From a virus (taxonomy: Duplodnaviria > Caudoviricetes): a stretch of 64,000 nucleotides of DNA. The stretch is taken from the IMG/VR virus record IMGVR_UViG_2974732664_000001, positions 1-64,000 of that record; one strand, given 5' to 3'. Made by a program: the position numbers and the translations under genes. Under the pieces are notes generated by a model. That model had not been told where the DNA came from. It did not search any database and saw only the letters and a list, made by a program, of their open reading frames with translations. The first letter of the stretch is position 1, and every line of letters starts with the position of its first letter. This document shows positions 15,134-37,012 of this stretch, one piece after another.

Positions 15134-15256
15134 TAGTGGTTATTATACACTTACTGAAGTAAGAGGGTATACTATGTACGAATTCATTATATGGGTATCG
15201 TACTTGGCTATAAAAGCGCACACATAGCGACGGTTCGAGTCCAGTAGCCACTACAC
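15134..15256 (+). ncRNA. tRNA-like RNA with expanded interior
   Basis: Closing stem TAGTGGTTAT/GTAGCCACTA preceded by a T-loop GG-TTCGAGT-CC. Confidence 0.4.
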
Positions 15257-15366
15257 CTTTATTAAATCATTTTTTAGTTATCAACAGGTTTTATTTCCAT
15301 GCAGGTATATCGGTTCGTGAGGATAGATATACCATTTTTATAGATTAAATCAAAATATATATAGAT

Positions 15367-15657
15367 ATGGAAGATAAGAAACATTCTTTTATGGACCAAT
15401 TGAATCTGTTCTTTATTGGAGCGGTTATTGGTGTCATTGTTGGTGCCTGCTTTGGTATTAATGCTGTAAAAGGTAGCAATAACAGAGCAGAGAAAAAAGT
15501 AAAAGCGTACGAAGAGTATTATAAATGCACTGAGACGCTTTTAGACTCTCTCGATGGAACACATAATCTTGACCTCATGGATACAGATCTTGAGACAGAT
15601 TATGGTGCTGATTATTTGGAAGCTAAGTCTAAAGTAGATGAACTAATTGTAAAGTAG
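15367..15657 (+). CDS. Membrane-anchored hypothetical protein (TAG stop)
   Basis: ORF track; TM segment LFFIGAVIGVIVGACFGI. Confidence 0.75.
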   Translation: MEDKKHSFMDQLNLFFIGAVIGVIVGACFGINAVKGSNNRAEKKVKAYEEYYKCTETLLDSLDGTHNLDLMDTDLETDYGADYLEAKSKVDELIVK

Positions 15658-15763
15658 TATGAATGAATTCGACAAAGAAGAACATACGGAAGATATAACG
15701 AACTACCAATAAATTTATATCTAAAACCAATTTAAAACATAAGGGTTGAGTTGCATCAACCCT

Positions 15764-15828
15764 AAGTGTTTAATGTAGCCAGCGTAAGCTGAGAGTCCAA
15801 AGCCTCTACAAATACAGATGGAACACTT
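15764..15828 (+). ncRNA. Twister ribozyme (type P1)
   Basis: P1 AAGTGTT/AACACTT, U15771-A15772 cleavage site, P2 TGTA/TACA, P3 AGC-GTAA-GCT, P4 AGAG-TCCAAAGC-CTCT, pseudoknot CCA/TGG. Confidence 0.88.
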
Positions 15829-15890
15829 TTTATACCGAGTGTAAGCGGTAAGTCTTACACAAAAATAAACAATGTTTAATTATCAAAATT

Positions 15891-16307
15891 ATGAACATTA
15901 TCGAAAAATTGTTGGGTGAAGCATACCCAAAGCTTGGGTCAGAAGTTTTTGCTGACGGTAACAAAACAGTCGTAACAGTATCTCGTACACTGTCTCCAGA
16001 TCATGTTGATTTGGATGCTCCTAGTTACGTGGAGACTAAGTTCAAGAAACACATTCCAATCTTGAGATCTATTGACGTTGAACTGGACGCCGTAACAGAA
16101 GAACAGACCATTAAGGTGACAGTTGAAGTTGATGGTAAATTCAACAGCATTGATGACTTGAGGCATCTTACATTTATCGCTAGAGGAATTAGCGAAGTCG
16201 CAGAAGACAAGCTCAGTGAGCCTAATATAATTAAGGCCATTGGTCTGTATTGTAAACCATTCATTTGCACAGATGATGAATCAGAAGAAACACAAGCAAA
16301 CGCATAA
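15891..16307 (+). CDS. Hypothetical protein
   Basis: ORF track; TTATCAAAATT-ATG start motif. Confidence 0.8.
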   Translation: MNIIEKLLGEAYPKLGSEVFADGNKTVVTVSRTLSPDHVDLDAPSYVETKFKKHIPILRSIDVELDAVTEEQTIKVTVEVDGKFNSIDDLRHLTFIARGISEVAEDKLSEPNIIKAIGLYCKPFICTDDESEETQANA

Positions 16308-16530
16308 CCAAGCGGTTAAGCCACAGTCAGCAAAAGGGAAGCCTGATGCTGAATACCTTAACTACAAGGTAGTTGCTAAGGAGGGAGGATCTACAATGAT
16401 CCTCTCTTCTGGATTAAGTAAATGTAATGCCAAATCTTTGGAAAATACTTTGAATAGTTATATTAACAACAAACATTCAAATATTCCGGGAGCTGGCAAG
16501 ACAAGTGTTAAATTCATAACGATTCATTAA
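16273..16530 (+). CDS. Hypothetical basic protein
   Basis: Track ORF 16240-16530, first ATG at 16273; TAATG coupling to the next gene. Confidence 0.65.
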   Translation: MMNQKKHKQTHNQAVKPQSAKGKPDAEYLNYKVVAKEGGSTMILSSGLSKCNAKSLENTLNSYINNKHSNIPGAGKTSVKFITIH

Positions 16531-16910
16531 TGAGTGTAAAATTATACGAGAAGCCAGATAAACATAATCCTGGCCCACTGATAGCGATAGTCATAATAAT
16601 AATGTTATTGTTATTGACTTCAAAGTGTCAAGCGCAGCAAAAAGCTGCAATAGACACAATGGTTTGCAAGGTTGAATGTATTAAACAAATAGTACAGAAA
16701 CCTAGTGTTAACGGTAAAACCGTTAAGTATCTAGCTGTATATGTTGATAAGTCAGCAGGATTCTCAGAGATTATTCCAATCTCAAAGAGTGTTGTAGACT
16801 ATATTAGCACATGCAAGCAATTCTCTCTCAAGCCTACACTTGGCATTAGGTTAAGAAATGGTGTAATAACATCTATCGTTCGATACAAAATCAAATTTGT
16901 ACACAAATGA
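16530..16910 (+). CDS. Hypothetical exported protein
   Basis: Hydrophobic N-terminus followed by CQAQQ, a possible signal-peptidase site. Confidence 0.7.
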   Translation: MSVKLYEKPDKHNPGPLIAIVIIIMLLLLTSKCQAQQKAAIDTMVCKVECIKQIVQKPSVNGKTVKYLAVYVDKSAGFSEIIPISKSVVDYISTCKQFSLKPTLGIRLRNGVITSIVRYKIKFVHK

Positions 16911-17365
16911 AGTTTAGTAAAGGAGACGTAGTACGCCGAGTATTGCCTAGTGGCACAATGGTAGGTGGTTTAATGGTCGTAATCAATAACATCGGCGACA
17001 AATGCACAGTTGTTAGAGATGTATCAACTGGAAAATACTATATATATAGGTCAGAACATCTAGGAAAGGAAGGAAAAACAACAAAGATTTTGGTTAGTAA
17101 AAGTGATATGAATAAAATCGACACAACGAAAGGTGTTGGTGCATTCTATCATAGCGTATCACCTGTATATGATAAGCTATATGCTAATCCATCAAGATTT
17201 GTATGTTTTATACTAGCTTACACCAAGGGTGAGACCATACATAGAGTATATCAACTTGGAAAAATATCTAGAGTATTACGAAAAGTTGATGAAATTCGTA
17301 AAGGATACGAAATGGTTCCAGTTAAACAACCAATGTACAAGCTTCAATTAATAGGTGAACTATGA
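16907..17365 (+). CDS. Hypothetical protein (SH3/KOW-like N-terminus)
   Basis: MKFSKGDVVRR...; overlaps the previous stop. Confidence 0.7.
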   Translation: MKFSKGDVVRRVLPSGTMVGGLMVVINNIGDKCTVVRDVSTGKYYIYRSEHLGKEGKTTKILVSKSDMNKIDTTKGVGAFYHSVSPVYDKLYANPSRFVCFILAYTKGETIHRVYQLGKISRVLRKVDEIRKGYEMVPVKQPMYKLQLIGEL

Positions 17366-17553
17366 GTAAAAAACTTAGTCCTGGCAGAATCTACAAAATA
17401 AATGGCATTGTTGTTAGGGCTAAACGTCAATACAATTGCAATGAGTGTATCTTTAACAATCCTTTCTCTTGTCCAAAAGTAAACGATTCAAAAGATTTGA
17501 ACGAAGAATCACCATCATGCATTGAAGACGGAATAATTTTTATTAGTCCTTAA
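17362..17553 (+). CDS. Small Cys-rich protein
   Basis: CNECIF...C...C; ATGA overlap. Confidence 0.65.
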   Translation: MSKKLSPGRIYKINGIVVRAKRQYNCNECIFNNPFSCPKVNDSKDLNEESPSCIEDGIIFISP

Positions 17554-17555
17554 TT

Positions 17556-17828
17556 ATGGCAAAACGTAGAAAAAACGGACAAATGTCTGACGAAGAATTA
17601 GAAGTTAGACGCCATCACTCATCATTGCGTAGACTTAAAGCGCATTGTAGTGATGAAAACGTAGAGTTAAAAGATTATAAATTTGCAAATCCTGATGATA
17701 TGTGTGTATTATCATTAAGTGATGTAGATTTGGGATCAAGAAAGAGTTATTTAACAACAGATAACGATTCATGGTTTGTCAGTGAAGATGACTATGAAGA
17801 GGTATCACAAATAGCATTATACCTATGA
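17556..17828 (+). CDS. Hypothetical protein
   Basis: ORF track; tight operon spacing. Confidence 0.7.
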   Translation: MAKRRKNGQMSDEELEVRRHHSSLRRLKAHCSDENVELKDYKFANPDDMCVLSLSDVDLGSRKSYLTTDNDSWFVSEDDYEEVSQIALYL

Positions 17829-18028
17829 GAAAAGAATATGGAGAGCTATTTGTATCAATAGCATTAATAATTATTTCGGCATTCCCTCTTTTTGACTTAT
17901 TGTCAAACATAACGAATATAACTAACATAAGCGATTTTTCGTTGATAGTAGTAATTGTTATGTTGATAATAGTTTTGATCTCCAGTATTATATATTTTAT
18001 ATCATATTGGACGGAAAAATTTAATTAA
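17825..18028 (+). CDS. Two-TM membrane protein
   Basis: Two hydrophobic stretches; ATGA overlap. Confidence 0.7.
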   Translation: MRKEYGELFVSIALIIISAFPLFDLLSNITNITNISDFSLIVVIVMLIIVLISSIIYFISYWTEKFN

Positions 18029-18262
18029 GTTGCATTTCAAGGGGGCGGTTTATACCGTCCCCGAGATTTATTAGGTTAGAGGCCTACATAACAGTTCAAG
18101 TCTGTATAAAATTACAAATGGGTACCAAACAACTCCCTACAACTCTATTAAATAGCGTAATTACTTTAAAATTAATCATTTGAGTTAGAAAGAAAAAAGA
18201 ACGTTAGATAGTAGGAGACAATGGAATGGTTTAAATATAACCAGTGAAAATTGCCCATATTT

Positions 18263-18336
18263 GGACTTGTAGCTCAGTTGGTTAGAGCAACAGACTCATA
18301 ATCTGGAGGTCCTAGGTTCAAGCCCTAGCTGGTCCA
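18263..18336 (+). tRNA. tRNA with CAU anticodon (Ile2 or elongator Met)
   Basis: GGACTTGTAGCTCAGTTGGTTAGAGCAACAGACT[CAT]AATCTGGAGGTCCTAGGTTCAAGCCCTAGCTGGTCCA. Confidence 0.92.
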
Positions 18337-18407
18337 CAAAAGATGATTCCGTGAATCTTTAAAACCCGGATAGTTAACATTTGTTGAATCTCTAATAAAT
18401 TATCAAA

Positions 18408-18899
18408 ATGAAGAGATTATTCGAAAAGCTTAGCATGTGCTTAATCATGCTTATTGTAGCCGTCACAGTATCGTCATGTGACTACATGAAAAAAACTAAG
18501 AGTGAGATCAGACACGATGACTCGCTCATGGTATCAAAGATGATGCAGGATATTGACAATCCTACATTCACCGGCTGTTCTGACGTTATAGAGTTTCAGA
18601 GATCGGAAGGTCAATGGAGACATCAGGACTCAGTGTTCTTCAGCATACCTGAAAAGGTTATGCGTGATGTGGTATCGGTCTTAGAAAAATCTGGAAAACC
18701 ATTGACTAAGATGAGTATATCGAACGAGTTCGAGATGAACAAGCATGTATATTTGAATCTTCCTGATGAACAGGATCAATACAATGCGATTGCTCCTCCT
18801 GATACCCCTAACGTAGAAATGGTTGATACTATTATCGACGGTAAGCATGTACAGATCGTGCAGTCCTCCAGTACTAACATAACAACAAAGGAGGATTAG
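18408..18899 (+). CDS. Putative lipoprotein (TAG stop)
   Basis: Signal peptide with lipobox VSS-C. Confidence 0.75.
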   Translation: MKRLFEKLSMCLIMLIVAVTVSSCDYMKKTKSEIRHDDSLMVSKMMQDIDNPTFTGCSDVIEFQRSEGQWRHQDSVFFSIPEKVMRDVVSVLEKSGKPLTKMSISNEFEMNKHVYLNLPDEQDQYNAIAPPDTPNVEMVDTIIDGKHVQIVQSSSTNITTKED

Positions 18900-18901
18900 A
18901 T

Positions 18902-19321
18902 ATGAAGCGGTACATTATTATCTCTTACGATGGTTCTAGTTTGGATCCATCTGAAGTTATGGCAATAGCTTCACAACTGAACACAGTTAAACCTGATGTT
19001 AAGGATGTGCATGCAGTTACAATGGATGAAACGGAAGTTAATTCCATTATTATCGGTCACGCAGAAGCCAAGAATGCTACAGAACTTTCTGTTGTAGAGT
19101 CTGCGTGCATCTACGTGAAAAAAAGATTTAGTAAGTTTTTCTACTCCAAGATGAAGCTGTTGCTTGCATTGTCAGAGGCTATAACTAATGAGCCTAACAA
19201 TGAAGCTCTTATGAATGCCATCAGAGTTATGTCTGGTGGTATAAGTAAGAGAATGCGTGATTCTTACGGTATTTCTACCGATATTATTTGTGTATTTAAA
19301 ACGGTTCAAGATAACATGTAA
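18902..19321 (+). CDS. Hypothetical protein
   Basis: ORF track. Confidence 0.75.
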   Translation: MKRYIIISYDGSSLDPSEVMAIASQLNTVKPDVKDVHAVTMDETEVNSIIIGHAEAKNATELSVVESACIYVKKRFSKFFYSKMKLLLALSEAITNEPNNEALMNAIRVMSGGISKRMRDSYGISTDIICVFKTVQDNM

Positions 19322-19323
19322 CT

Positions 19324-19470
19324 ATGTATAAAACACAACGTAATACTAAGAAAGTGTATCGTCAGCGTCACGCAGAAGCCAAAACAAAGGCATATAAGCG
19401 TGACAAGTTTAAAAACAAGCTAAATCCTTTAGATTATGTGGAAGATTCCAGTATATACGACAAAAGCTAA
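19324..19470 (+). CDS. Small Arg/Lys-rich protein (48 aa)
   Basis: MYKTQRNTKKVYRQRHAEAKTKAYKRDKF..., starts 2 nt after the previous stop. Confidence 0.5.
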   Translation: MYKTQRNTKKVYRQRHAEAKTKAYKRDKFKNKLNPLDYVEDSSIYDKS

Positions 19471-19669
19471 GGGAAAGGGTAAGAATACAAAAACATTGGT
19501 ATTCGAATCCAAGTACCCTAGTGAGAATCAAGCTATAGATGCTAGATTCGCACTTATTCATTTGGCTAACTGCTCTCACAAAGCTCCATGCGATATCACC
19601 ATTAATAATAATGGCGCAATATTCGTTAAAAATCCATCCTGGAGTGTGGGAGAAGTAACAATATGTTAA
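19436..19669 (+). CDS. Hypothetical protein
   Basis: ORF track. Confidence 0.6.
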   Translation: MWKIPVYTTKAKGKGKNTKTLVFESKYPSENQAIDARFALIHLANCSHKAPCDITINNNGAIFVKNPSWSVGEVTIC

Positions 19670-19705
19670 TTAATTTTATTTACAAACATTTAAAACATTA
19701 TCAAA

Positions 19706-20200: not shown

Positions 20201-20215
20201 TTCTTCTTCTAATAC

Positions 20216-20501: not shown

Positions 20502-20666
20502 GAGGATTACTATATATTTTTAGCCATGTTTTAAGCGCTCTGAGGCAGAGTATGTCACCAAGTGGAGTAATTAACCACGAGTGCCGCAAAAATGTCTTAG
20601 AGCGCACCTAAAACAGCTTAAATCGAATGTTCTGACTGATCATCGGAACATTTACAAGAAATGTAC

Positions 20667-20904
20667 AATGTGTATGAAATAATCTGTCTGGACAGGGGTT
20701 CGACTCCCCTCACGTCCACTGGGCATCCTCTACGCTATTGTGTAGATTCCATTTGAACAACCTAGGCATGTTGTAAAACTGCCTACACGGGCGTGTTTGG
20801 TTTTGACAGACAGAGGAGATAAATACATTAAGCACTATACTATAAATTAAACGACAATGTAAATAACATTGTAGACTATACTAACGTAGCGTAAGTTTAG
20901 TCTA
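20667..20904 (+). ncRNA. ssrA: Circularly permuted (two-piece) tmRNA
   Basis: The 3' acceptor half (TCTGTCTG-GAC-AGGGG-TTCGACT-CCCCT-CACGTCC-A, to 20718) precedes the 5' half GGGCGTG-TTTGGTTTTGAC-AGACAGA (from 20789). G3-U70 and A73. Tag frame 20853-20894 reads DNVNNIVDYTNVA*. Confidence 0.85.
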
Positions 20905-20930
20905 GGTGTTTCCTACCAAAGTGGAGAGAA

Positions 20931-20992
20931 GAAGAAGTTGGTTCTTTGGGCTACACACCCGAGGATTAGGGTTCGACTCCCTAGCTTCTTCC
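20931..20992 (+). ncRNA. Mini tRNA-like element (no D arm)
   Basis: GAAGAAGT/GCTTCTTC acceptor; TAGGG-TTCGACT-CCCTA T arm. Confidence 0.65.
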
Positions 20993-21000
20993 TATTAGTT

Positions 21001-21522
21001 ATGACAAAGGGATATAAAGCGATGATAAAGGACAGGTGTCCTCATGTCGTCAACCTCGCATTTAAATGGTGTACAGAATTTGGCAGATTATCTAATATAG
21101 GTAAGAAGCCACATGAAAGAATTAAGTATGCTGTAAAAACGCGATGGATAGACCGTGTATACCAAGAAAATGTAGCAATCTATAACACTGGAAGAGGAAT
21201 ACCTCGAACAGATGAAAAGGATGCATCATTAAGAAAAGCTCTTGGAATACATGAGGGGTCGCAAAATTTTAATTTTGCAGACTCTATAAATTTGGATGGC
21301 ATCAACAAAGTATTCAACTCTGGAGAACGAGCATTTTGGATCTGGGTTAATAGCTGGGTAGTATGGTTTCAAGAGAACTATAAGTACCTAGAAAACTATT
21401 ATAACATATCATGTAAGTGTGGCAATATGGCTTTATTTGATAAAGCATTGTCAGAAAAAGCTAGTTTTCTAGATGAGTATTTTGAAGATTTCTCTAAGTT
21501 TATTAAGAAAACATTTAATTAA
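21001..21522 (+). CDS. Hypothetical protein
   Basis: Track ORF 20938-21522; first ATG at 21001 (the upstream part is the tRNA-like element). Confidence 0.75.
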   Translation: MTKGYKAMIKDRCPHVVNLAFKWCTEFGRLSNIGKKPHERIKYAVKTRWIDRVYQENVAIYNTGRGIPRTDEKDASLRKALGIHEGSQNFNFADSINLDGINKVFNSGERAFWIWVNSWVVWFQENYKYLENYYNISCKCGNMALFDKALSEKASFLDEYFEDFSKFIKKTFN

Positions 21523-21534
21523 ACAAAATAAAAA

Positions 21535-24618: not shown

Positions 24619-25020
24619 ATGAAAAAATTAGTGATCACGTTGTTAGGAGCAGCATTCCTTACTATCGGCATGAATATTGCCGATCTTAAGAATGTTCCCC
24701 TTCCAACGACAGTGCAGACAGTAGCAGCATCTACTGTACAGCAACCAATGGACCATTTGTTTGGTCAAGTGAATCGTGCTAATCCTGATACAGTGCATGA
24801 TACCGTTAGGGTAGAAAAGCCTGTACCTTGTAACCATAAACAGTTACCTGCAAAGGTAATTGTTAAACGCACCGTAATTAAGAAGACAGATACGTCGTAT
24901 GTACCACTTCTATATATTATGGAACCTGGAGAAAAGGTCGACTCCACTAATCACAACTCTACCATTCGTAAGGGAGAGCTCAATGATTATATTCAAATCG
25001 CCTCCAATGTGCATAAGTAA
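24619..25020 (+). CDS. Hypothetical exported protein
   Basis: MKKLVITLLGAAFLTIG signal peptide. Confidence 0.75.
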   Translation: MKKLVITLLGAAFLTIGMNIADLKNVPLPTTVQTVAASTVQQPMDHLFGQVNRANPDTVHDTVRVEKPVPCNHKQLPAKVIVKRTVIKKTDTSYVPLLYIMEPGEKVDSTNHNSTIRKGELNDYIQIASNVHK

Positions 25021-25029
25021 ACACAAGAA

Positions 25030-27100
25030 CACTATGCACTATAATTGGGTAAGTACATATGGTAGATCCCATTAGTCTACGTACTATTCTGGAACATCCC
25101 TCGCGAAGGAGCTAGAAGAAAAACTCAATAAATTAAACTTGATCCGAGAATATGTTAACTCTGTCTTGCAGAGCGAGATCACTCAAAAGGTAGGATGAAA
25201 TGTATCAAACATTGAAACAGTTTGATATAGGTAGGAGAAGCGTTGTATCAGCTCCTATAGATTATACAGCTGGACTTGTGAGAACCGTCTGGAGACAAGC
25301 TGGATGAGGCTGTATAATCTAAAAACGCATAAGTCCCAAGAAGGGCATAATGAACCGTATCGTAATTATATGTGATAATACTAAGCATATACAAACGTTA
25401 CACGAGATGAACTATATTGGTCCCCAGTAGGTGAACAGAATTGCATACATGGTATGGTGCATGGTGCTGGAAGAACCGAGGATATCCCAAACAATATAGA
25501 AGTATTATTAAGCCGTAGGTAGTGTTTCTAGTGTCCAAATCTAGTATAAAGGCCGAAAAAATTATCTAAGACGCAATATCGTGAGGATAATACTCACGGG
25601 ACGTATGGTGAATACGTTGGCATATAGTCCTTGACGTTCGATTCGTCACAACTCCATTGAAGGGGTGCCGGGGATGAGGTGTAAGACGTCTGAGCTCATG
25701 GTAGACCGCCAGGCTTTTCTTGTTTATGCGGTATATAAAAGTAAAACAAGCGCAAGGGTTGGGCAGCCCCTTAATCGAAGCTCTACGGGAGTATCGTACG
25801 CGGGTGAAGATCGCGGTGAAAATCTATTCCAGTTGTATTATTAGGATGTTAGGCAATCCGAACTTACAGCCAATTTCCATGAAAATTAAATCGTTCATGA
25901 GACTATGATCGATGACTCCGTTACAGTCAAAGAAAATTGATGGAGAGCTATCCTAGAATAAGAAATAGCAAAGCAGGTAGAAAGTTGATTCGAGATATGT
26001 CCATCCAGGACCATTTGACCTCCACTTTCATCCAAAACGATCTAGACTAATAGTTTATTTGCACCATGATATACAATATTACATAGTCTCTACAGAGTAG
26101 TAAGCTGGTATATTATGTATGCGTATGTTGTATGCAAAAGATATAAATTATGAAAACCTAGAAAGTTTAAAAGATAACATGTTTAACAAAAATTGATGTC
26201 CCTTCATAGAGTTAATCTTACGTTGTAAGTAAGGGCTTGAGGTGAAGAAATCGAGTGCCAACCGATATGCCAACCATGCTAAAGTATACTGCGCAACAGT
26301 ATATGTAAACATAAAGGTTCGAAGCAATACAGGAAATTGATGGGCAGCTTATATCTATGTTGTAAAACGACTGTGTATATTATATGTGTATACTGTCTCT
26401 ATACATGTATATTACGTTATAAGTGGGTGACAAGATGAAATGTATGGGTTGAATTCCCAATATTCGTGCACTATAAATAGGAGGTAGTAATACCGGTACA
26501 GAAAAATTGCAAACATCAGCAAAGATGTAAAAAGCCGTAAAGTCTGTGATGGGTTTGATCCTGAGACATTCCGATAACCAACCGCTGGGTACATGCCATA
26601 AGCCGAGTACCGCAGTAAGGAGCCATTTCGATAAGTTAGGCGCTTTTAAAACTTATTAGCCGAGGAAATCTGCGTTTAATCGACAACCTGTAGGAAGATC
26701 TTGTAAGTATAGTAAGGGAAATACGACCGAGATTCTACATATTTTCGTGGGTTATAGAAAATTCTAAGATTCTATGAGTGTTAGTTGCTATGCAAAATTT
26801 CACCAACGAAAATTAGAATAGTTAAGTTAGAAAAAAACGTGAACAAAATAGCAGAAAACAGTTCAGCATTTGATTATGCAAAGGAAGCATTCAAAGCTTT
26901 AGACGATGGGCCTGGATAAACCAGTAAATGCTAATTGCATCATACGTATGCAATTCCTGCTGCAAGCCTATTATCCTATTGTCGTAATAGAGAAAGTGCA
27001 GCTAAGTCTAGATAAAGCGTCTACAATAGTAGAACTTCCTTTAGAAAACTAAGTACGCAAAGTAGTAACCGAGTATCTTCGTATCAGCGTTGCTTTATTC
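25030..27100 (+). ncRNA. Putative large structured non-coding RNA region (~2.1 kb)
   Basis: No credible ORF. Many helices, e.g. TAGATTATACAGC/GCTGTATAATCTA (25258-25321) and long-range GGATGAAA (25193)/TTTCATCC (26026). Confidence 0.5.
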
Positions 27101-27185
27101 AATAAACAACGGCAAAGGTGTAGCCAAAATACACCATATTTTTCAATCATATCGTTAGTTAATCAATAACGATATCAAAAAGGAT

Positions 27186-27779
27186 ATGATTATGTCAGAA
27201 ATTAATGTAAACATCGTGGAAACAACTATTAAGTCAAATCGTACCCCACTGAGCATGCTCGGTGCAAAAATGTTTGGTCAGGACGTATTTACTCCTCAGA
27301 CCCGTTTATTCAACCCAGACCATGACAAGGTTTTGGAGCAGGCTAAGCAGAGCTCCAATGTAAATCTTGTACTCAATCGTTCGCCTCGTCGCTTCTCGAT
27401 CGGCTATATCACGATTGAGTCCATGGCAACAAAACAGAATGCAATCGGCGATGTCGTTTGCCGTCTTAATGAGGGCACCGACAATCAGATTGATATTCCT
27501 CTCGGTGAGAACAGCACCAAGTTTGGTGAGACCACTGAAGAGGCTGTCCAGAACGCTCTTAAGGACAAGAACTCTAAGGCCGTGTTCTCAGATCCTAAAG
27601 ATTTGAGTGTCATTCTTAATGACCTTAACCGTGGAGAGATTGCTCGTCTTGACGCAATGATCGAACAATTGCAGAAGGCTAAAGCACAGTGTGTGTCTGC
27701 AATTTCAGCAAATGAGAAGATCGTTGCTGACTATGAGCGTCAGAAGACAGAGTCAAAACCAGCTGATAAGATCGCGTAG
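27186..27779 (+). CDS. Hypothetical protein (TAG stop)
   Basis: ORF track. Confidence 0.82.
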   Translation: MIMSEINVNIVETTIKSNRTPLSMLGAKMFGQDVFTPQTRLFNPDHDKVLEQAKQSSNVNLVLNRSPRRFSIGYITIESMATKQNAIGDVVCRLNEGTDNQIDIPLGENSTKFGETTEEAVQNALKDKNSKAVFSDPKDLSVILNDLNRGEIARLDAMIEQLQKAKAQCVSAISANEKIVADYERQKTESKPADKIA

Positions 27780-28645: not shown

Positions 28646-29194
28646 ATGAATAAGAAATCAATTAAATTGAACTCAGCAAACATCATCACAATTCGTAAGA
28701 ATATTGATATTACTATCAATAAGTATTGGCGAATTATTCGAGCAGAGAACCTCATGTCTAAAAAGGCAATTGCAGCAAAGCAGGGTTCTGGCTTAGATCT
28801 CAAGAGCTTGTATAACCAGATTGTGCAGCTTAGTGAGAAGCGTATTATGATTAAGGGTATTTTGGTAGCTCTTAATACAGGTACAACTACATTCTCTTAC
28901 GAGGATTTTAAGAAGACAAATAACTATAGTATTTTCGCAGCATGCGAGGCAAAGGAGGCAATAGCACAACTTAAGATGATCAAGACACTTGATCCATCAA
29001 CTAAGGCAAAGAAGGGATTGAAGGCTATGCCTAAGCGTGAGATATTCTCATCAGCTAAGATTGCTCAGCTTATCCATGATCAGCAACTACTAGCAAATAA
29101 GTTTGACGCTAATCTCGAGAAGTTTAACAATGAGACTTCTATTGAGATTAAAGATACTATTGCAGATAAGTTCGAGATGGATCTGACAGTTTAA
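28646..29194 (+). CDS. Hypothetical basic helical protein
   Basis: ORF track. Confidence 0.8.
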   Translation: MNKKSIKLNSANIITIRKNIDITINKYWRIIRAENLMSKKAIAAKQGSGLDLKSLYNQIVQLSEKRIMIKGILVALNTGTTTFSYEDFKKTNNYSIFAACEAKEAIAQLKMIKTLDPSTKAKKGLKAMPKREIFSSAKIAQLIHDQQLLANKFDANLEKFNNETSIEIKDTIADKFEMDLTV

Positions 29195-29202: not shown

Positions 29203-29263
29203 GGTTCGAGACAAATATAAGGGTCGCCGAAAGGAGTAAGATCGAGGCTTACACGAACCACAA
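29203..29263 (+). ncRNA. Mini tRNA-like element
   Basis: GGTTCG/CGAACC-A-CAA acceptor; GTAAG-ATCGAGG-CTTAC T arm. Confidence 0.55.
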
Positions 29264-29318: not shown

Positions 29319-30272
29319 ATGTCAAAGAAGAATAACAAGAAGAACCTCAAGAAGGTTCAGGCTAAGATAGGAACTACACCAGTTAAGGCTGAGGCAGCTA
29401 AGAAGGAAGAGTCTAAGGCTGCTATAAAGAATGCAGAAATTGCTGCAGCAAAAGACGATGCTAAGGCAAAGAAGAAGGCTGAAAAGAAAGCTCACGAGGA
29501 GGCTAAATATGCTGCCTCTAAAGCTCGCATAGAGGCCCGTAAGGCGCGCAAAAAGAGCATCATGGATAAACTGATCGACTCCAAGAAGGAAAAGGCTTCA
29601 GAGCCTGTTAAAATCACTCTGGAAGACCGCCTGAAGAATCAGGAAGAGCGTCGTAATGTCGCCATGGCTCGTCATATCGCATCAATTACCCGTCGGTGCA
29701 AGCGTATGCATCTCAATGATGCCGACACCAAGAAGGTGATAGACATCGCAAAGAAGCAGTGGGACAACGCCACTGTATACAATATTACAGTTGTATGTGA
29801 TTCTATTCTGAAAAAGAAGAAGGAGCTCGGGAAGTTGGTAAAGGATTGCGGCATTAAATCTGCATGTATTACTAACTCTACAGCATTCTTTAAGAATGTG
29901 CCAGCAAGTGTGGTAGCAAAACTGCGTGATCTTGTAGGTAATGCTACATTCTATCAGTATCGTTCTGATGATAAGTCTCCATTCGAGGAGGCTGGCATAG
30001 ATATGTCAGGCAATCACAACAAGCATAAGAAGGGAGGTGATCCTCATACTATCGAGTGCTCAAAGAACGCTAGTGTGAACTTCTACAATCTCCGTAAAGC
30101 TAAGAAGAAGGCTAAGGAGATGCTCGAGAAGAACACGTATAACTTCCGTCACGGCTCTAAGGCTGAAGGACGTAAGCTTCGTCGTGGGCTCAAAGTTAAG
30201 GCTAAAGCCGTAAACAAAAAGCCTACACAGGTGAAAGAAGTTAAACAAAAGTCAGTTAAACAAGCAGCTTAA
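29319..30272 (+). CDS. Very basic Lys/Ala-rich protein (possible nucleic-acid binder)
   Basis: ORF track; amino-acid composition. Confidence 0.8.
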   Translation: MSKKNNKKNLKKVQAKIGTTPVKAEAAKKEESKAAIKNAEIAAAKDDAKAKKKAEKKAHEEAKYAASKARIEARKARKKSIMDKLIDSKKEKASEPVKITLEDRLKNQEERRNVAMARHIASITRRCKRMHLNDADTKKVIDIAKKQWDNATVYNITVVCDSILKKKKELGKLVKDCGIKSACITNSTAFFKNVPASVVAKLRDLVGNATFYQYRSDDKSPFEEAGIDMSGNHNKHKKGGDPHTIECSKNASVNFYNLRKAKKKAKEMLEKNTYNFRHGSKAEGRKLRRGLKVKAKAVNKKPTQVKEVKQKSVKQAA

Positions 30273-30952: not shown

Positions 30953-30992
30953 GGCGTAACTTCTTCAAAACCGACCAGGACACCACTGGTCA

Positions 30993-31045
30993 CCCTAGTG
31001 TGCTCCGAAAGGATATGACTGCGAGGTGCAAACCCTCACTAGGGA
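30993..31045 (+). ncRNA. Mini tRNA-like element directly before DNA polymerase
   Basis: CCCTAGT/ACTAGGG-A acceptor; GAGG-TGCAAAC-CCTC T-like arm; internal TCC-GAAA-GGA hairpin. Confidence 0.55.
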
Positions 31046-31048
31046 ACT

Positions 31049-32959
31049 ATGATAGTAAAGGAAAGACCAGTAGTTCTATATGACATAGAAGTTTTTCCAA
31101 ACTGTTTTCATTGTACTTGTAAAGATTCAGAGAGTCATAAACTATATAAATTCGAGATATCCTGTCGTAAAAATCAACTAGAAGAACTAGTTGACTTCTT
31201 CTACACAAACAGAACTGATCATATAATGTGCGGCTACAACAATAAGCATTATGATGACATAATCATAAGTTACATTATACATTTCTGTAGTAGAATGAAG
31301 CGACTAGGATACTCGAGAATTTGTAGTTCTCTCTACTATCTTAGTAAAGAAATAATAAGTTCGGAAAAAACAGGAAATATTGATAAGATTAAAGTGTACA
31401 AGTATTCAAACTACTTCTATTCATTTGATCTTATGTTGATGCTCTATAGTGCCAAACAGCAAAAAAGCTTAAAAGAAATAGAAATACTCTTACATATGCC
31501 AAATGTACAAGAGTATGAAGGAAGCTTTGATCTGCAGATCCAAGAATGTGATATTGACGCTATGATAGAGTATAATGTGAACGACGTAGAAGCTACTGAG
31601 ACTTTGCTTAATAAAGTAAAAGAAGATGTAGAACTACGTATTGAAGTGGAAAAAGAATGGGGGTTTGATGCACTGTCGATGAGTGGTGTACGATTTGGAG
31701 AAGAAGTACTCTTGCGAAAGACTTTAGACATTACCAACACAACAAAAGACGAGCTAAAAACTCGTGTTCGAAAAGTCGGAAACATTCGCCTAGGTGACAT
31801 CATACTCCCATTTATACAATATTCTAATCCAAAGTTGAAAGAAGTCTTATTGGATGTAAAAAATGCTACTTGCAATGCAAGTAAGTCTGATAAGAAACAA
31901 GAAAACTATGAGAAGAAGTTTGTTCTCTCAAACATTTGCTACTCTATAGGTGAAGGTGGTATACACACCATAAACGAACCTAGAGTCTACAAACCTACAG
32001 CTGAACAGTTTATAGGACACTCCGACGTTACGTCTATGTATCCTTCGTTAGCCATTATAAACAATTGGCTTCCGGTTCACTTAGGAGAAGATTTTTGGAA
32101 TGTGTACAGCGCTCTATACAAGGAGCGCTTGGCTGCCAAACGTAATGGAGAGTTATTAAAGTCTAAGGCATTTAAACAGGCTCTTAATGCTCTTACAGGA
32201 AAGATGCAACAAGAAAGTAGCTGGGCTTATGATCCACTTAACGTATACAAGATACGTATAAATGGGCAACTTATACTACTTATGTTAGTGGATAGGCTTC
32301 TAGAATTGAATTGTAAGATTGTACAAGTCAATACAGATGGTGTCGTCTACATTGCCGACAAATCCGCCCGCTTCGCAATAGCCGATGCAATTAAGGAAGT
32401 TGAGCAATTAACCCAGTTAACATTCGAATCCGATGATTACGAGTCGTTTTATCAGTACGACGTGAACAATTACTTTGGTGTTCGCAAAGGATATTCCCAA
32501 TCTGGAGATCCAAGACTGATAGAAAAGAAAGGCAAGTTTATCACAGAAATTGGTCTTAACAACAGCATGACACCAGTTGTTATCTCCAAAGCTGTGATAA
32601 ACTATTTTTTGAACAATGAACCGATAGACAAGTTTATTAAGAAGGATAGAGATGTCCGTGATTTCTTGATGTCACAAAGCGTAAACAAGGAATCAAAAGT
32701 TGAATATGGAGGAAAACAGATTCAACGTATTAATAGATATTACGCGTCAAGCAGTGGCTATTATCTTATGAGAATTAAGGACAAAATGTACGAAAATCGT
32801 TCTGAAACAAAAATAACAGAATATGGAGTACGAATTCTTAACAAGATAGATGCCACACCAATAGAGAAACGTCATCTGGATTACCAATACTACATTAGCA
32901 AAGCAAAAAAGATAGCTAGTGAGTTTGTTAATCGCCAGTTGACAATATTCGATGATTAA
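31049..32959 (+). CDS. DNA polymerase family B
   Basis: Exo motifs YDIEVFPN, GYNNKHYD and YNVNDV; polymerase motifs SDVTSMYPS, KQALNALTGK and VNTDG. Confidence 0.93.
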   Translation: MIVKERPVVLYDIEVFPNCFHCTCKDSESHKLYKFEISCRKNQLEELVDFFYTNRTDHIMCGYNNKHYDDIIISYIIHFCSRMKRLGYSRICSSLYYLSKEIISSEKTGNIDKIKVYKYSNYFYSFDLMLMLYSAKQQKSLKEIEILLHMPNVQEYEGSFDLQIQECDIDAMIEYNVNDVEATETLLNKVKEDVELRIEVEKEWGFDALSMSGVRFGEEVLLRKTLDITNTTKDELKTRVRKVGNIRLGDIILPFIQYSNPKLKEVLLDVKNATCNASKSDKKQENYEKKFVLSNICYSIGEGGIHTINEPRVYKPTAEQFIGHSDVTSMYPSLAIINNWLPVHLGEDFWNVYSALYKERLAAKRNGELLKSKAFKQALNALTGKMQQESSWAYDPLNVYKIRINGQLILLMLVDRLLELNCKIVQVNTDGVVYIADKSARFAIADAIKEVEQLTQLTFESDDYESFYQYDVNNYFGVRKGYSQSGDPRLIEKKGKFITEIGLNNSMTPVVISKAVINYFLNNEPIDKFIKKDRDVRDFLMSQSVNKESKVEYGGKQIQRINRYYASSSGYYLMRIKDKMYENRSETKITEYGVRILNKIDATPIEKRHLDYQYYISKAKKIASEFVNRQLTIFDD

Positions 32960-32980
32960 TCGTTTATCAACGTATATAAG

Positions 32981-33547
32981 ATGATTATTGAACTAAACAC
33001 AAAACTCCTGGACATTCCAGGACTAAATTCAAATCAATTAATATTCCTAAGTTTGGTATTGGATAAGAATCAAAAAACCTATAATCAAGACGTCCGCAAA
33101 ATTGTCAGCCTAGTTAGCGACGAAGAAATATCAAACTTAATTTCTCAGGGACTTATTACCTCGATCGAGAGAGGTAAGTCAATTACATATCATGCAACAG
33201 ATACGCTTAAGGATATAGTTCGACCTAAACAGGACTATTTCGATCTGTTTTATGAAATGTACCCAATATACGTTCTACGACCAGATGGCACCAAAAACTA
33301 TCTGAGAGCCAACGTTAACAAGTGTAGACATTTATTTAATGTTTATGTAGGTCAAAGCGAAGCTATGGCTCAACATCTTATTCAGTGTCTCGACTTCGAA
33401 ATGAAGAAAAAGACTAACGAGGGTAAACTAAGTTATATGAAGACGATGTGGAGATGGCTCGTAGACCATCAATGGGAAGAATCTGAGGAAGAAATGCAAG
33501 ACAACTCTAAAATTGAGGAATCGACTTATGGAACAGAACTTATCTAA
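32981..33547 (+). CDS. Putative replication initiator / helicase-loader-like protein
   Basis: Winged-helix-like N-terminus, FDLFYEMYP and W-rich C-terminus; directly precedes DnaB. Confidence 0.55.
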   Translation: MIIELNTKLLDIPGLNSNQLIFLSLVLDKNQKTYNQDVRKIVSLVSDEEISNLISQGLITSIERGKSITYHATDTLKDIVRPKQDYFDLFYEMYPIYVLRPDGTKNYLRANVNKCRHLFNVYVGQSEAMAQHLIQCLDFEMKKKTNEGKLSYMKTMWRWLVDHQWEESEEEMQDNSKIEESTYGTELI

Positions 33548-34454
33548 TCTTATAAGACCAATGTCAGTTGTAGCCCAAGAGGCAATAAACTACATATCTG
33601 GTCGTAGAGATCACTCTATAACATCTCTAAAGACTAGATGGACTAAGTTTAATAAGCAGTGTATGGGAGGTATTGAACCTAATACCGTTTATACCATAGC
33701 TGGTATTTCAGGAAGTGGTAAGAGCTCATTCGCAAATGAGATCTCAACTGATATTGTTGATTTGAATCCTGGTGAAGAAATAGTAATTCTGATTTTCTCG
33801 TTAGAGATGGTTGGATTTAGGCAAGTTGGAAGAACGCTTTCTAGTAAGCTTAGGAAAACGACTTCGACTTTGTATAGTTCGGAAACGGACCTAGATGACG
33901 ATACCTTCAGAAAAGTCATCTCAGTATCTAATCAACTAAAGGAGTATCCTATATGGTTTGTAGATAACCCTACAACTCCCAAAGAAGCAGAAGATATTAT
34001 TAAGTATTTCTATAATACATACATAAAGGGTACCGATAAACATTTTGTGATAATGTACGACCATGCTCTATTGACGAAGCCGATAGGCAGCGTTATAGAA
34101 ACCATGCAGGAACTCGAAAGAGTTTTCATAAGTGCTAAAAAGTACCCTATGACATCAGTGTTACAACTAGCACAGATGAATAGAAATATTGAATCACCAG
34201 AAAGAATAAACAATTCTTTGTCGCATTATCCTATGAGAAGCGACATTTCATCTGCTGATGCTTTATTTCAAGCTAGCGATTATGTTATAGTTATTCATAG
34301 GCCTGAAATTCTTGGAATACAAGAATACGGCCCGAGCCATTTACCTACTCAGAACAAGGTGTATCTACACATCTTGAAGAATCGAGACGCAGGAAAGCCC
34401 TGCATACTTGAATTCCAGAATGACTTAGCGTATAACAACTTGATAGAAAGTTAA
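33528..34454 (+). CDS. Replicative helicase, DnaB-like (SF4)
   Basis: Walker A AGISGSGKS, FSLEM, LAQMNR, SDISSADALFQASD, ILKNRD. Confidence 0.92.
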   Translation: MEQNLSNLIRPMSVVAQEAINYISGRRDHSITSLKTRWTKFNKQCMGGIEPNTVYTIAGISGSGKSSFANEISTDIVDLNPGEEIVILIFSLEMVGFRQVGRTLSSKLRKTTSTLYSSETDLDDDTFRKVISVSNQLKEYPIWFVDNPTTPKEAEDIIKYFYNTYIKGTDKHFVIMYDHALLTKPIGSVIETMQELERVFISAKKYPMTSVLQLAQMNRNIESPERINNSLSHYPMRSDISSADALFQASDYVIVIHRPEILGIQEYGPSHLPTQNKVYLHILKNRDAGKPCILEFQNDLAYNNLIES

Positions 34455-34477
34455 GCAATTAAAATTTAGGCTGAATT

Positions 34478-34933
34478 ATGACAACATACGATATTAAGTT
34501 TACTGACAACAACATTAAGAACACTAACAATGGTAACATTTATTCTCAGATTCTCGACGATATTATTCTTTCTACTGTAAAGAAGAACAACTCTTATTTG
34601 TTTAACACAAAGAAGGAGGATGACGATCTGATTGATGCCATGTTCGACGAGTTGGATCATACTTATATCTACAAGCCTCTGAAGGGCGACACTTTGTTCG
34701 CAAAGGCTTGTGATATTCTTGCTAACTATGGCAAGAAGAAGAGTATTATGAAGGGTATTAAGTTCGGTAAGATTTACCGTCTTGAGAATGGTCTCCCTGT
34801 CATTTTCTACAATGATGAGATTCAGATTGGTACCGACATTTATAGTTACTCTGATTTTAGTGATTACAACTTCATCTCTTCACTTAGTCCAGAGATTAAG
34901 AAGACAATCATTAATATTAACATTAAGCTTTAA
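34478..34933 (+). CDS. Hypothetical protein
   Basis: ORF track. Confidence 0.8.
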   Translation: MTTYDIKFTDNNIKNTNNGNIYSQILDDIILSTVKKNNSYLFNTKKEDDDLIDAMFDELDHTYIYKPLKGDTLFAKACDILANYGKKKSIMKGIKFGKIYRLENGLPVIFYNDEIQIGTDIYSYSDFSDYNFISSLSPEIKKTIININIKL

Positions 34934-34958
34934 TTAAAACTTTTAGTATCATTGTATC

Positions 34959-35699
34959 ATGAGTTTAACATTACCTACTAGTAAAATTCCTGCAGTTTCT
35001 GAAAATCCTAGATATCTTATACTCTATGGTCTTCCAAAGGCTGGTAAGACATCTTGTCTTGCACAGCTGGATAATAACCTTATCATAGACCTTGAGGGAG
35101 GCTCTGTCTTCGTTGATGCGATGGCCATCCAGTGTCGTACGATCAACGATTTAGGAGAAGCAGCAAGTGCCATTCGTGCCAAGAATAAAGAAGTAGGTCA
35201 TAATTTCTATAAGCATATCACTATCGATAATGCTACACGACTTGAGGATATTTGTATGAGCTATGCTTGTACACTCTATCGACAAACTCCAATGGGTAAG
35301 AAGTGGGACGGCACAGACGTAACCACATTACCTAACGGTGCTGGATATAAGTATCTTAGAGACGCAGTAAAGAAGGTAGTTGATATGTTCCGAGATTTGT
35401 GTGACGAATTTATTCTTGTAGGTCACGTTAAAGACACCGTAACTGAAAAGGATGGTGTTGAAGTTTCTGCAAAAGAGCTCGACTTAGTTGGTAAGCTGAG
35501 TAAAATCGTGTGTGGATTAGCCGATGCGGTTGGTTATGTATATCGCAAAGGAAATGAAACGCATATATCCTTTAAAGGTGGTACATCTGATACCATCATG
35601 GAGGCTCGTGCAAGACACATAGCCGGAAAGGATATCGTTATTGCAGAAGGTAATGAAGATGGGACACTTACAACGCATTGGGATAGAATATTTAAGTAA
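34959..35699 (+). CDS. AAA_24 / Sak4-like ATPase (putative recombinase)
   Basis: YGLPKAGKTS, IDLEGG, ITIDN, ILVGH, ADAVGY. Confidence 0.8.
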   Translation: MSLTLPTSKIPAVSENPRYLILYGLPKAGKTSCLAQLDNNLIIDLEGGSVFVDAMAIQCRTINDLGEAASAIRAKNKEVGHNFYKHITIDNATRLEDICMSYACTLYRQTPMGKKWDGTDVTTLPNGAGYKYLRDAVKKVVDMFRDLCDEFILVGHVKDTVTEKDGVEVSAKELDLVGKLSKIVCGLADAVGYVYRKGNETHISFKGGTSDTIMEARARHIAGKDIVIAEGNEDGTLTTHWDRIFK

Positions 35700-35789
35700 A
35701 TTGATATATCGATCTATTCGATCAGTAGCATACTATGCTGAGAATAAACTTGATATGTTAGCATTACGTATATTAAAATAATAGAGATT

Positions 35790-36395
35790 ATGTTTAGTAC
35801 AAAGACAGCCGCAATTAGCAACGAAGAATTTAGTAATAGTAGTTATATGCCAGTAGGCATCAATCAGAATGTCACTCTTAAAGAGGTAAACTGCAACAAG
35901 TCTCCTCAGGGTCTCGATTTCCTCGAGATCGTATTTGAGAATGAGGATGGTCAGACAGCTACTATGACAGAGTGGAAGAATACAAAGGGAATGTATATTA
36001 AGACAGACGAAGACTTGCAGAAGCGTGATAATGCTAAGTTTGGACGAGTTTGTCAGATTCTTGATTGTTTCTACCCACAGAGACCAGATGCAGAGCTTTC
36101 TACATTCAAGGAGATGATTGACTGGACAAAGCAGATGCTTGACCCTATGATTGCTACCAAGAAAAAGCTCCGTTTGAAGGTTATCTATGACAAGAAGGGC
36201 TATACTCAAGTAAGTAAGCTCGGAATCTTCGTTGAAGACATGTCTAATACAGATTCGCAGATTAAGCTCTTTAAGAACGATCTTATGGAGCGACCAGTTG
36301 TTGCAGATAAGGAGAACAACGATCCGCTTAACATGCCACCAACCGTTACTCCGGAAACTGCGAATGCAGAAGGCGCATCAGATCTTCCCTTTTAA
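35790..36395 (+). CDS. Putative single-stranded DNA-binding protein
   Basis: Follows the Sak4-like gene; flexible tail ending SDLPF. Confidence 0.65.
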   Translation: MFSTKTAAISNEEFSNSSYMPVGINQNVTLKEVNCNKSPQGLDFLEIVFENEDGQTATMTEWKNTKGMYIKTDEDLQKRDNAKFGRVCQILDCFYPQRPDAELSTFKEMIDWTKQMLDPMIATKKKLRLKVIYDKKGYTQVSKLGIFVEDMSNTDSQIKLFKNDLMERPVVADKENNDPLNMPPTVTPETANAEGASDLPF

Positions 36396-36591
36396 GGGGT
36401 TTACGCCTGAAGAAATAAAAATACTACTTGATTGTATGAAATCCGGTAAATGGTTCTTATACTGTTTACATAGCAGGAGTGCCAAACTATACAACAAGTG
36501 GATACACCCCAGGGAGGTAATACTGCCATGAAAGGGTGTTGGTGGAGCTAGGTAATTCAGTTACCCTTTGGAGGTGAAATGCCTCCAATAA

Positions 36592-36717
36592 GGCTCGCAG
36601 GGTGTCGTGAGACACAAGCATGGACGTATGCGAAAACAGATCCAAATCGACGTTTTAATCATGTTTTGTTATATAGACAAAAAGTCCAGTAGGGTTCGAA
36701 TCCCTACAAAGCCACAA
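36592..36717 (+). ncRNA. tRNA-like element with expanded interior
   Basis: GTAGGG-TTCGAAT-CCCTAC T arm; GGCT/AGCC-A-CAA end. Confidence 0.5.
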
Positions 36718-36947
36718 CATTTCTGATGATAAGAAGAGCTACAGCTTGTGAAAGTAATAGCTCTGTCCGCCTGTGAAGGCCGATATTATCTATGATGCAC
36801 AGTTTACCTGGCATCAGATTTCATACGCGTGTACGCTACGTAAGTGCGGGTTTGAATAACCTAAAGTCCGAGCTTAGCATCTCCGTAAACTGCTATACGT
36901 CCGTCAACGTAGACCTGAGCATGTCATTAAACTGCTCATTTTTATAA

Positions 36948-37012
36948 GGGCGTGATGAAGGAAAGATCTAATATAGAAATATATAGCCACAGTTCGAGGC
37001 TGTGGGCGCCCA
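36948..37012 (+). ncRNA. Mini tRNA-like element directly before primase
   Basis: GGGCGT/GCGCCC-A acceptor; CACAG-TTCGAGG-CTGTG T arm. Confidence 0.6.

Follow-up and report, generated by a model that had tools for sequence, protein, structure and literature searches.

Conserved tRNA-like elements in front of replication-region genes of a crAss-like phage and their possible role as transcript punctuation

A crAss-like phage of the genus Burzaovirus (Suoliviridae; 103.8 kb, with terminal repeats) carries, in front of its genes, a dispersed set of RNA elements that retain the acceptor-like stem and the T arm of a transfer RNA (tRNA). The middle part of these elements is variable or missing, and the anticodon loop is gone. 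They were studied in the first 64,000 nucleotides (nt) of IMG/VR record IMGVR_UViG_2974732664_000001, the stretch referred to below as the window. The positions of the elements are conserved across Suoliviridae, and genuine tRNAs occupy the same positions in related phages. We therefore regard the elements, with modest confidence, as mimics of the tRNA 'top half' that punctuate long early/replication-region transcripts in cis and are probably signals for RNase P and RNase Z.

The original prediction, made from the letters of the window, listed seven tRNA-like elements before genes and one lone T arm. All seven and the lone T arm are present in the sequence at the coordinates given below. The closest RefSeq genome is NC_055899, cr124_1 (Burzaovirus faecalis, Suoliviridae, Oafivirinae), which has 98.5% identity to the window. 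All listed elements are intergenic relative to the coding sequences of cr124_1 and lie on the strand of their flanking genes; between 14 and 38 kb, all genes, including those for PolB (ATG at 31049) and the primase (ATG at 37027), are on the plus strand. The cr124_1 annotation was used instead of an open reading frame (ORF) mask with TAG read through, which over-calls coding and covers even tRNA-Met. The seven elements are also conserved in relatives, where their acceptor-like and T stems show compensatory changes, and the first part of the prediction is thus borne out. One further element (c9) was absent from the earlier list. In the lines below, MFE denotes the minimum free energy structure.

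c1, 15134-15256, plus strand: 123-nt branched tRNA-like RNA (fold z −2.15)
c2, 18065-18117, plus strand: 53-nt mimic (14 distinct relatives, covariation)
c3, 20931-20992, plus strand: 62-nt mimic (MFE forms the fold)
c4, 29203-29263, plus strand: 61-nt mimic (MFE forms the fold, z −2.36)
Hairpin, 30973-30991, plus strand: GACCAG-GACACCA-CUGGUC, 1 nt 5′ of c5 (compensatory changes in 4 of 6 pairs)
c5, 30993-31045, plus strand: 53-nt mimic (fold z −2.79)
c6, 36592-36717, plus strand: 126-nt four-way tRNA-like RNA (fold z −3.38)
c7, 36948-37012, plus strand: 65-nt mimic (fold z −3.34)
c8, 25632-25648, plus strand: T-loop hairpin UGACG-UUCGAUU-CGUCA (stem covariation, 32 loci)
c9, 9508-9582, minus strand: 75-nt tRNA-like element (tRNA-??? 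of ARAGORN, with lowered thresholds only)

Relatives were collected from IMG/VR as 80 loci around primase homologues, 38 around PolB and 35 (~21 kb) around ORF 23006, and RefSeq records from four Suoliviridae subfamilies were added. The elements were counted by a script with a fixed descriptor; MAFFT did not bring the unrelated 5′ acceptor strands into columns. The slot in front of the primase gene is filled by a tRNA, a mimic or a lone T arm in 65 of 73 distinct upstream regions: 12 contain standard tRNAs according to ARAGORN (Leu, Val, Trp, Thr, Lys and Pro), 48 contain mimics, five contain lone T arms and eight are empty. The mimics are 42-134 nt long and combine an acceptor with a canonical T arm, and the slot element ends 11-28 nt before the ATG. 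The 63 distinct T arms of this slot are accompanied by 47 different acceptor 3′ strands and have 44 different T stems. A fully paired 7-base-pair (bp) acceptor was found for 60% of the T arms, compared with 6% when the upstream sequence was shuffled.

In front of PolB, relatives carry either c5 or a full-size tRNA-like element with a closed or shortened anticodon loop, and in both forms the ATG lies 2-3 nt past the discriminator. Sister phages with 94-97% identical PolB have an unrelated tRNA-like sequence in the place of c5, which argues that shape matters here and not sequence. In other subfamilies, a tRNA stands before PolB, tRNA-Arg in cr115_1 and tRNA-His(atg) in cr53_1, while the primase slot of the same two phages holds minihelices of 59 nt and 41 nt, respectively. 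Downstream of the transfer-messenger RNA (tmRNA), 33 of 35 loci, as well as cr131_1, have an element in the slot of c3; the middles of these elements vary, and their acceptors form three different helices, each fully paired. The earlier suggestion that c3 defines the 3′ end of the coding piece of the tmRNA is plausible in view of this conservation; c3 itself pairs with its own 5′ strand.

The T loops are canonical in c3, c6, c7 and c9, and read UUCAAGU in c2, AUCGAGG in c4 and UGCAAAC in c5. The closing stem of c1 has 9-10 bp (UAGUGGUUA/UAGCCACUA) and encloses internal hairpins; the stem beneath the GGTTCGAGTCC loop of its T-loop-like hairpin GGUUCGAGUCC has only 3 bp and makes a marginal T arm. 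The discriminator of c1 is C, followed by ACC, and ORF 15367 starts 110 nt downstream. This element is kept in 13 distinct relatives, with compensatory changes in 3 of 38 pairs. The mimic c2 is composed of a 5-bp acceptor (GAUUU/AAAUU), a middle hairpin (UAGG/CCUA) and the T arm ACAG-UUCAAGU-CUGU, followed by A-CAA, and homology to the window stops 2-4 nt downstream of its discriminator. Its single-sequence fold is weak (z −0.39) and overlaps the tail of a terminator; a chance fold was considered for these reasons and dropped on account of compensatory changes in 4 of 14 pairs among the 14 relatives. The mimic c3 starts 36 nt past the stop of the tmRNA tag, with its discriminator 8 nt ahead of the ATG at 21001. 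Acceptor and middle arm are 8 bp each, and the T arm reads UAGGG-UUCGACU-CCCUA. Among the elements, c3 is the only one called by ARAGORN with default settings, as a 67-nt tRNA-Cys(ACA) at 20926-20992 with the D arm missing.

The mimic c4 starts 9 nt past the stop of ORF 28646-29194, and 58 nt separate its discriminator from the ATG at 29319. Its acceptor (GGUUCG/CGAACC), GAAA-capped 2-bp hairpin and T-like arm GUAAG-AUCGAGG-CUUAC, followed by A-CAA, are kept in 20 distinct variants, and one of 16 pairs shows a compensatory change (G-C to A-U). In c5, an 8-bp acceptor (CCCUAGUG/CACUAGGG) encloses a GAAA hairpin and the T-like arm GAGG-UGCAAAC-CCUC. Counted back from the PolB AUG, the discriminator (A31045) is at 3 nt and the end of the 8-bp G+C-rich stem at 4 nt. 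This mimic is kept among relatives at 75-99% PolB identity, in which one pair of the closing stem shows a compensatory change (locus L113) and the interior is invariant. The larger c6 combines the acceptor GGCU(C)/(G)AGCC with a GUGA-capped hairpin, a long, variable A+U-rich arm and the T arm GUAGGG-UUCGAAU-CCCUAC, followed by A-CAA. The RNAalifold consensus shows compensatory changes in 7 of its 16 pairs, and its homologue in L051 directly adjoins the primase start.

The mimic c7 has the acceptor GGGCGU/GCGCCC, a GAAA-capped hairpin and the T arm CCACAG-UUCGAGG-CUGUGG. Its discriminator, A37012, is followed by CUAACUUAUAAAUU and then by the primase ATG at a spacing of 14 nt. In L019 and L020, a T-stem pair has changed from A-U to G-C and an acceptor pair from G·U to A-U. 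The additional element c9 shares its strand with tRNA-Sup(CTA) and lies upstream of it. Its 7-bp acceptor is perfect, its T arm canonical and its D stem 3 bp long; the place of the anticodon arm is taken by a 3-bp stem whose 8-nt loop (GAUAYAAA) is conserved. The fold has a z of −2.49. Conservation of c9 in five related genomes amounts to ~91-100% and extends to cases with diverged flanks; its T stem shows a compensatory change in L160. Covarying hairpins are located just 5′ of c2, c5 and c6 (18041-18062, 30973-30991 and 36570-36586, respectively), the first being G+C-rich and directly adjacent to c2. The hairpin at 30973-30991 is a candidate 3′-end stabiliser of the upstream RNA after cleavage by RNase P.

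The window also contains two known tRNAs and a tmRNA.

tRNA-Sup(CTA), 9123-9194, minus strand: found by standard tools
tRNA-Met(CAT), 18263-18337, plus strand: true tRNA, used for comparison (ARAGORN and Rfam, 65.7 bits)
tmRNA, 20629-20894, plus strand: permuted two-piece form with the tag DNVNNIVDYTNVA and its stop (ARAGORN tmRNA*; Rfam RF04321, 66.4 bits)

With a strict descriptor, 102 distinct elements were found over all loci together, 39 standard and 63 non-standard. Forms of only 41-48 nt are conserved across genera and subfamilies. The original prediction that the mimics share their trailer with true tRNAs agrees with this census: the trailer N73-C-(A/T)-A is common to both groups, the discriminator is mostly A, and position 74 is C in 54 of the 63 non-standard and 33 of the 39 standard elements. 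The trailer of tRNA-Met(CAT) is likewise A-CAA. None of the 102 elements encodes CCA, and the same holds for tRNA-Met(CAT). The 3′ ends of RNAs from genes of this kind must therefore be made by an endonuclease and completed with CCA. An encoded CCA is rare among tRNA genes of Bacteroidota (PMC10879173). No fold of a CCA-adding enzyme or of an RNase Z was found among the phage's own proteins, whereas the Bacteroides thetaiotaomicron control shows both. The tRNA array beside tRNA-Met (L121-L155, matching window positions 18120-18340) differs between close relatives; some have an extra tRNA-Lys(UUU), and some have 70-80-nt tRNA-like elements with closed or extended anticodon regions.

The abundance of T arms was compared with that in 200 dinucleotide shuffles of the window, a T arm being defined as a perfect 5-bp stem with at least three G-C pairs and a TTCRANN loop. 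The window contains eight such T arms, and 0.035 ± 0.18 are expected. Three of them belong to tRNA-Met, tRNA-Sup(CTA) and the tmRNA (at 20694-20710, in its acceptor piece), and the other five are located at 20967, 25632, 36690 and 36988 on the plus strand and at 9517 on the minus strand. Moreover, UGG occurs near the 5′ acceptor strand in 21 of 43 non-standard elements, compared with 9.5 ± 2.7 in shuffled sequences, and none of 500 shuffles reached 21. The retained UGG may be read as a remnant of the G18G19 of the D loop, which dock on the T loop. A GNRA-capped middle hairpin was also tried as a shared feature and was rejected because it is not enriched (4 of 43 elements, 4.4 expected). Outside the window, in the late region, a further G+C-rich canonical T arm (ACACGGG-UUCGAUU-CCCGUGU, then AGCGUAC-A-ACAA) is present at G000:C1:95476-95492 on the minus strand; no obvious 5′ acceptor partner was found for it.

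RNase P, RNase Z and the CCA-adding enzyme recognise a tRNA by its acceptor stem, T arm and elbow. In the mimics, conservation and covariation are limited to what these enzymes read, namely the acceptor, the T arm and the D-loop-like UGG; therefore, a processing signal fits the elements best. Because real tRNAs with the same 3′ trailer stand in the same slots of related phages, punctuation is the most likely role. Host RNase P would cut at the 5′ end of the acceptor and free the upstream RNA, either an mRNA or the coding piece of the tmRNA. The freed RNA would often end just past a small covarying hairpin, as expected of a 3′-end stabiliser. Host RNase Z would cut past the discriminator, so that only a very short leader stays on the downstream mRNA (3 nt at PolB, 8 nt at gene 21001 and 14 nt at the primase), and the excised RNA of 41-130 nt would then receive CCA. 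Translation may be affected as well; at PolB, the 8-bp stem would block initiation unless it is removed. The slots could contain real tRNAs, anticodon-ablated tRNAs or bare minihelices because any tRNA-shaped RNA can serve. The original prediction of processing signals is thus supported in part, namely by the anatomy of the elements, their slots, their trailer and the PolB start 3 nt past the discriminator, while cleavage itself is what we infer from these features.

The primase slot differs from the others in its variability. Among 24 genomes with primases at least 97% identical, the stretch from a conserved hairpin to the primase ATG is present as 22 different cassettes of 89-513 nt, whose units are drawn from a shared pool of tRNA-like units. 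The other slots (c2, c4, c5 and c6) are conserved, unlike this hypervariable one. The variety of the cassettes may need no more than a free exchange of equivalent punctuation marks, and the pattern also fits an arms-race locus. The annotated pair of 'tRNA-Val' genes in cr124_1 (L001 25894-25968 and 25979-26064) consists of units of the hypervariable cassette. In one of them, the T loop reads UGCAACU and the anticodon region is odd, and it is doubtful that the pair are decoding tRNAs.

Several observations weigh against punctuation marks of this kind. Geometry alone is hardly more frequent than in shuffled sequence: a 7-bp stem around any 5-bp hairpin with a 7-nt loop was found 24 times, compared with 16.7 ± 3.3, which was not counted as enriched, and with a 4-bp hairpin and a 7-nt loop the numbers were 31 and 27.9 ± 3.7. 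The geometry-only scan was therefore dropped as evidence, and the case rests on the T-loop sequence and on the relatives. For c4 and c5, whose loops are non-canonical, support consequently comes from the relatives and none from this genome alone. The original prediction would have been contradicted by folds equally frequent in shuffled sequence; this is nearly so for the geometry, and it is not so for the TTCRANN T arms. The elements are also heterogeneous, with a T stem of only 3 bp in c1 and an acceptor of 4-5 bp in c6. Not all of them are 'at' gene starts, since the following start codon is 58 nt away from c4 and 110 nt from c1. An interior that does not vary among relatives suggests a sequence-specific role or partner of c5 beyond shape, and the 22 cassettes in 24 near-identical genomes are unexplained by punctuation alone. 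Finally, no such element precedes the primase gene of Kehishuvirus, a Steigviridae phage.

A bolder form of the punctuation model adds a maturation switch. The mRNAs of the replication genes would be untranslatable until RNase Z and RNase P remove the block that abuts the start, which would yield near-leaderless mRNAs in a host phylum that does not rely on Shine-Dalgarno sequences. The excised mimics of the primase slot would also act in trans against tRNA-directed defences, hence their hypervariability. We consider this combination unlikely.

Another unlikely explanation is that the mimics are decaying tRNA genes, i.e. functionless pseudogenes on their way out, given that crAss-like phages have numerous tRNAs in intergenic hot spots. 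In the same slots, standard tRNAs do grade through anticodon-ablated forms into minihelices, several 'standard' calls of ARAGORN have unlikely anticodons (atg, aca, agg and aga), and the arrays beside tRNA-Met vary among relatives. However, decay should affect all arms alike, whereas the acceptor and T stems keep compensatory pairing and the D and anticodon arms are gone. Decay also does not account for slots that remain filled at a fixed distance from the start codons, for the UGG remnant or for the shortest forms being shared by different genera and subfamilies.

We give equally little credence to the idea that the elements are decoys or sponges, excised like tRNAs and acting in trans on tRNA-directed or tRNA-sensing host defences or on other proteins that bind the acceptor and T arm. 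Phage tRNAs are known to counter tRNA-cleaving defences, and the variability of the primase cassette is typical of arms-race loci. However, the c2, c4, c5 and c6 slots are conserved, and an action in trans would not need fixed placement directly before start codons. The more specific suggestion of the original prediction, decoys for anticodon nucleases, is unlikely because RNAs without an anticodon loop cannot mimic the targets of these enzymes.

It is no more probable that the elements are uncleaved cis-regulatory structures, such as an mRNA stabiliser or a translational operator for replication proteins comparable to that in T4 gp43 autoregulation. The way in which c5 abuts the PolB AUG, with an interior invariant across relatives at 75-99% identity, is what an operator would look like, and in relatives a covarying palindrome, xCTTATAAGx, is located between the mimic and the primase AUG. 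However, the exchange of c5 for an unrelated tRNA-like sequence in the sister phages speaks against an operator, and a protein operator needs no canonical T loop, discriminator or tRNA-type trailer. The palindrome abuts the primase ATG within the last 12-25 nt (L003-L082; AACTTATAAGTT, GCTTATAAGC and GACTTATAAGTC), and its sole copy in the window is at 37013-37026. DNA-level sites are very improbable: phage attachment sites are often copies of the T-arm and 3′ acceptor sequence of a host tRNA, and the cassette borders coincide with element ends, as would suit attP-like copies or recombination sites, but the 5′ acceptor strand, which only an RNA fold requires, is present and covaries, and the many copies per genome are all on the transcribed strand.

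Other identities were tried for individual elements and rejected. With introns allowed and low thresholds, ARAGORN reads 36534-37013 as a tRNA-Gln interrupted by a 387-nt intron; in cr124_1, the '5′ exon' is retained but the 3′ cassette is a different one, and these settings give further implausible calls. The idea that c3 is the 3′ domain of a one-piece tmRNA was abandoned because the acceptor strand of the tmRNA and the strand of c3 do not pair: the tmRNA 5′ acceptor GGGCGUG pairs with CACGUCC past its own T arm, and c3 pairs with its own 5′ strand GAAGAAGU. A minimal ribozyme similar to that of hepatitis delta virus (HDV) was considered for c5; its candidate P1 shows no covariation with the upstream hairpin, and there is no Rfam match. 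No Rfam match to known self-cleaving ribozymes (hammerhead, twister, HDV-like, pistol and hatchet) overlaps any element at E values up to 10. At the same limit, Rfam reports tRNA-Met as the only canonical tRNA (RF00005) in 14000-38000; its output drops a hit when a better one from the same clan overlaps it.

In the original prediction, the lone T arm c8 is followed by ACTCCA. The hairpin itself is conserved, and its stem variants in the 32 loci are UGACG/CGUCA, UACUG/CAGUA and UGCCG/CGGCA. Most relatives have ACTCCG in place of ACTCCA, and this 3′ flank finds its pairing partner downstream (ACTCC/GGGGT, with the covarying pair UCUCC/GGGGA in cr131_1); ACTCCA is thus not a CCA end. With no acceptor, c8 is a conserved T-loop hairpin inside an ORF-free RNA region and not a mini-tRNA. 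This region, 25020-27186 on the plus strand (2.1 kb), contains no credible ORF even with TAG read through and is rich in helices. It is a candidate large structured RNA. ORF-free gaps of ~2 kb are also found at similar positions, upstream of the polymerase region, in cr131_1 (L002 10302-12340), cr115_1 (L164 3656-5862) and cr53_1 (L165 533-2659).

Ribozymes are found in the region around c1.

RAGATH-1 hammerhead, 14726-14807, plus strand: Rfam match
Twister of P5 type, 14901-14967, plus strand: sub-threshold match that includes GGUCCCAAGCCC (21.8 bits)
Twister-P1, 15767-15825, plus strand: sub-threshold match (52.6 bits, cut-off 67.2)

The two twister matches flank c1 and ORF 15367 and adjoin the hammerhead. 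RNA cutting thus seems to be a theme of this region. The 15-nt motif GGUYYGUGARGAUAG is also present here in four copies on the plus strand (14572-14586, 14693-14707, 14845-14859 and 15312-15326), compared with 0.01 expected. It forms a hairpin loop in at least three copies, a T run follows two of these hairpins, and the motif recurs in cr131_1 (L002 ~5918-5945 and 6190-6217). Possible functions are a terminator specific to the phage and a loop that binds protein. A Pfam search of ten neighbouring ORFs gave no informative match, and a scan for sigma-70 promoters and terminators was uninformative, the sigma-70 model being unsuited to a Bacteroidota phage.

Full-text searching of the literature found no description of these elements in Crassvirales. 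If host RNase P and RNase Z do cut them, a major family of human gut phages would organise the expression of its replication genes by tRNA punctuation, a logic so far known from mitochondria and a few eukaryotic long non-coding RNAs. This would explain why these phages retain tRNA-shaped sequences that decode nothing, and it would flag mis-annotated 'tRNA' genes in crAss-like RefSeq genomes, such as the two tRNA-Val genes of cr124_1, as well as the tRNA-Cys(ACA) call here. The forms of 41-48 nt would be natural substrates for the tRNA-processing enzymes of Bacteroides. The hypervariable cassette before the primase gene is a separate puzzle, in which a role in phage-host conflict is possible.

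Compared with canonical tRNAs (RF00005), the mimics retain the acceptor, the UUCRANY T arm, a discriminator that is mostly A, the trailer and the absence of an encoded CCA, but they have neither a D stem nor an anticodon arm bearing a 7-nt loop. The mascRNA and MEN-beta tRNA-like elements of MALAT1 and NEAT1 provide an RNase P/RNase Z site within a long transcript, set the 3′ end of the upstream RNA and yield a CCA-tailed small RNA. They differ from the phage mimics in that they belong to eukaryotic nuclear long non-coding RNAs, have a full cloverleaf-like fold and are not located before coding genes. HDV-like theta ribozymes are found in Bacteroidota gut phages with CCA-less tRNA genes, where they trim transcripts around tRNAs (PMC10879173). 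They resemble the mimics as dedicated transcript-trimming RNA elements in such phages; however, theta ribozymes cleave themselves and lie 3′ of real tRNAs, whereas the mimics match no ribozyme family and would rely on host enzymes.

The nearest precedent for the mimics is given by the t-elements of plant mitochondria, which carry the sequence GGTTCRANYCC, have ends that match mRNA termini and are tailed with non-templated C, CC or CCA (Forner et al. 2007, PMC1920247). Like the mimics, they are non-canonical tRNA-like folds that keep a T arm of this type and an acceptor stem. A conserved T arm stacked on an acceptor-like stem, which characterises their fold, is present in the phage elements, marginally in c1 and not in c8, which has no acceptor. 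In both systems, as in mitochondrial tRNA punctuation, the elements lie between or before genes, and other gene borders are served by real tRNAs instead. One t-element even ends at a start codon (the rps4 5′ end at +2), as c5 does before PolB. Cleavage and the addition of non-templated CCA have been demonstrated for t-elements and are conjectured here for the phage mimics, which would function in a bacterial host, are reduced to minihelices of as little as 41-48 nt and, in one slot, are hypervariable among near-identical genomes.

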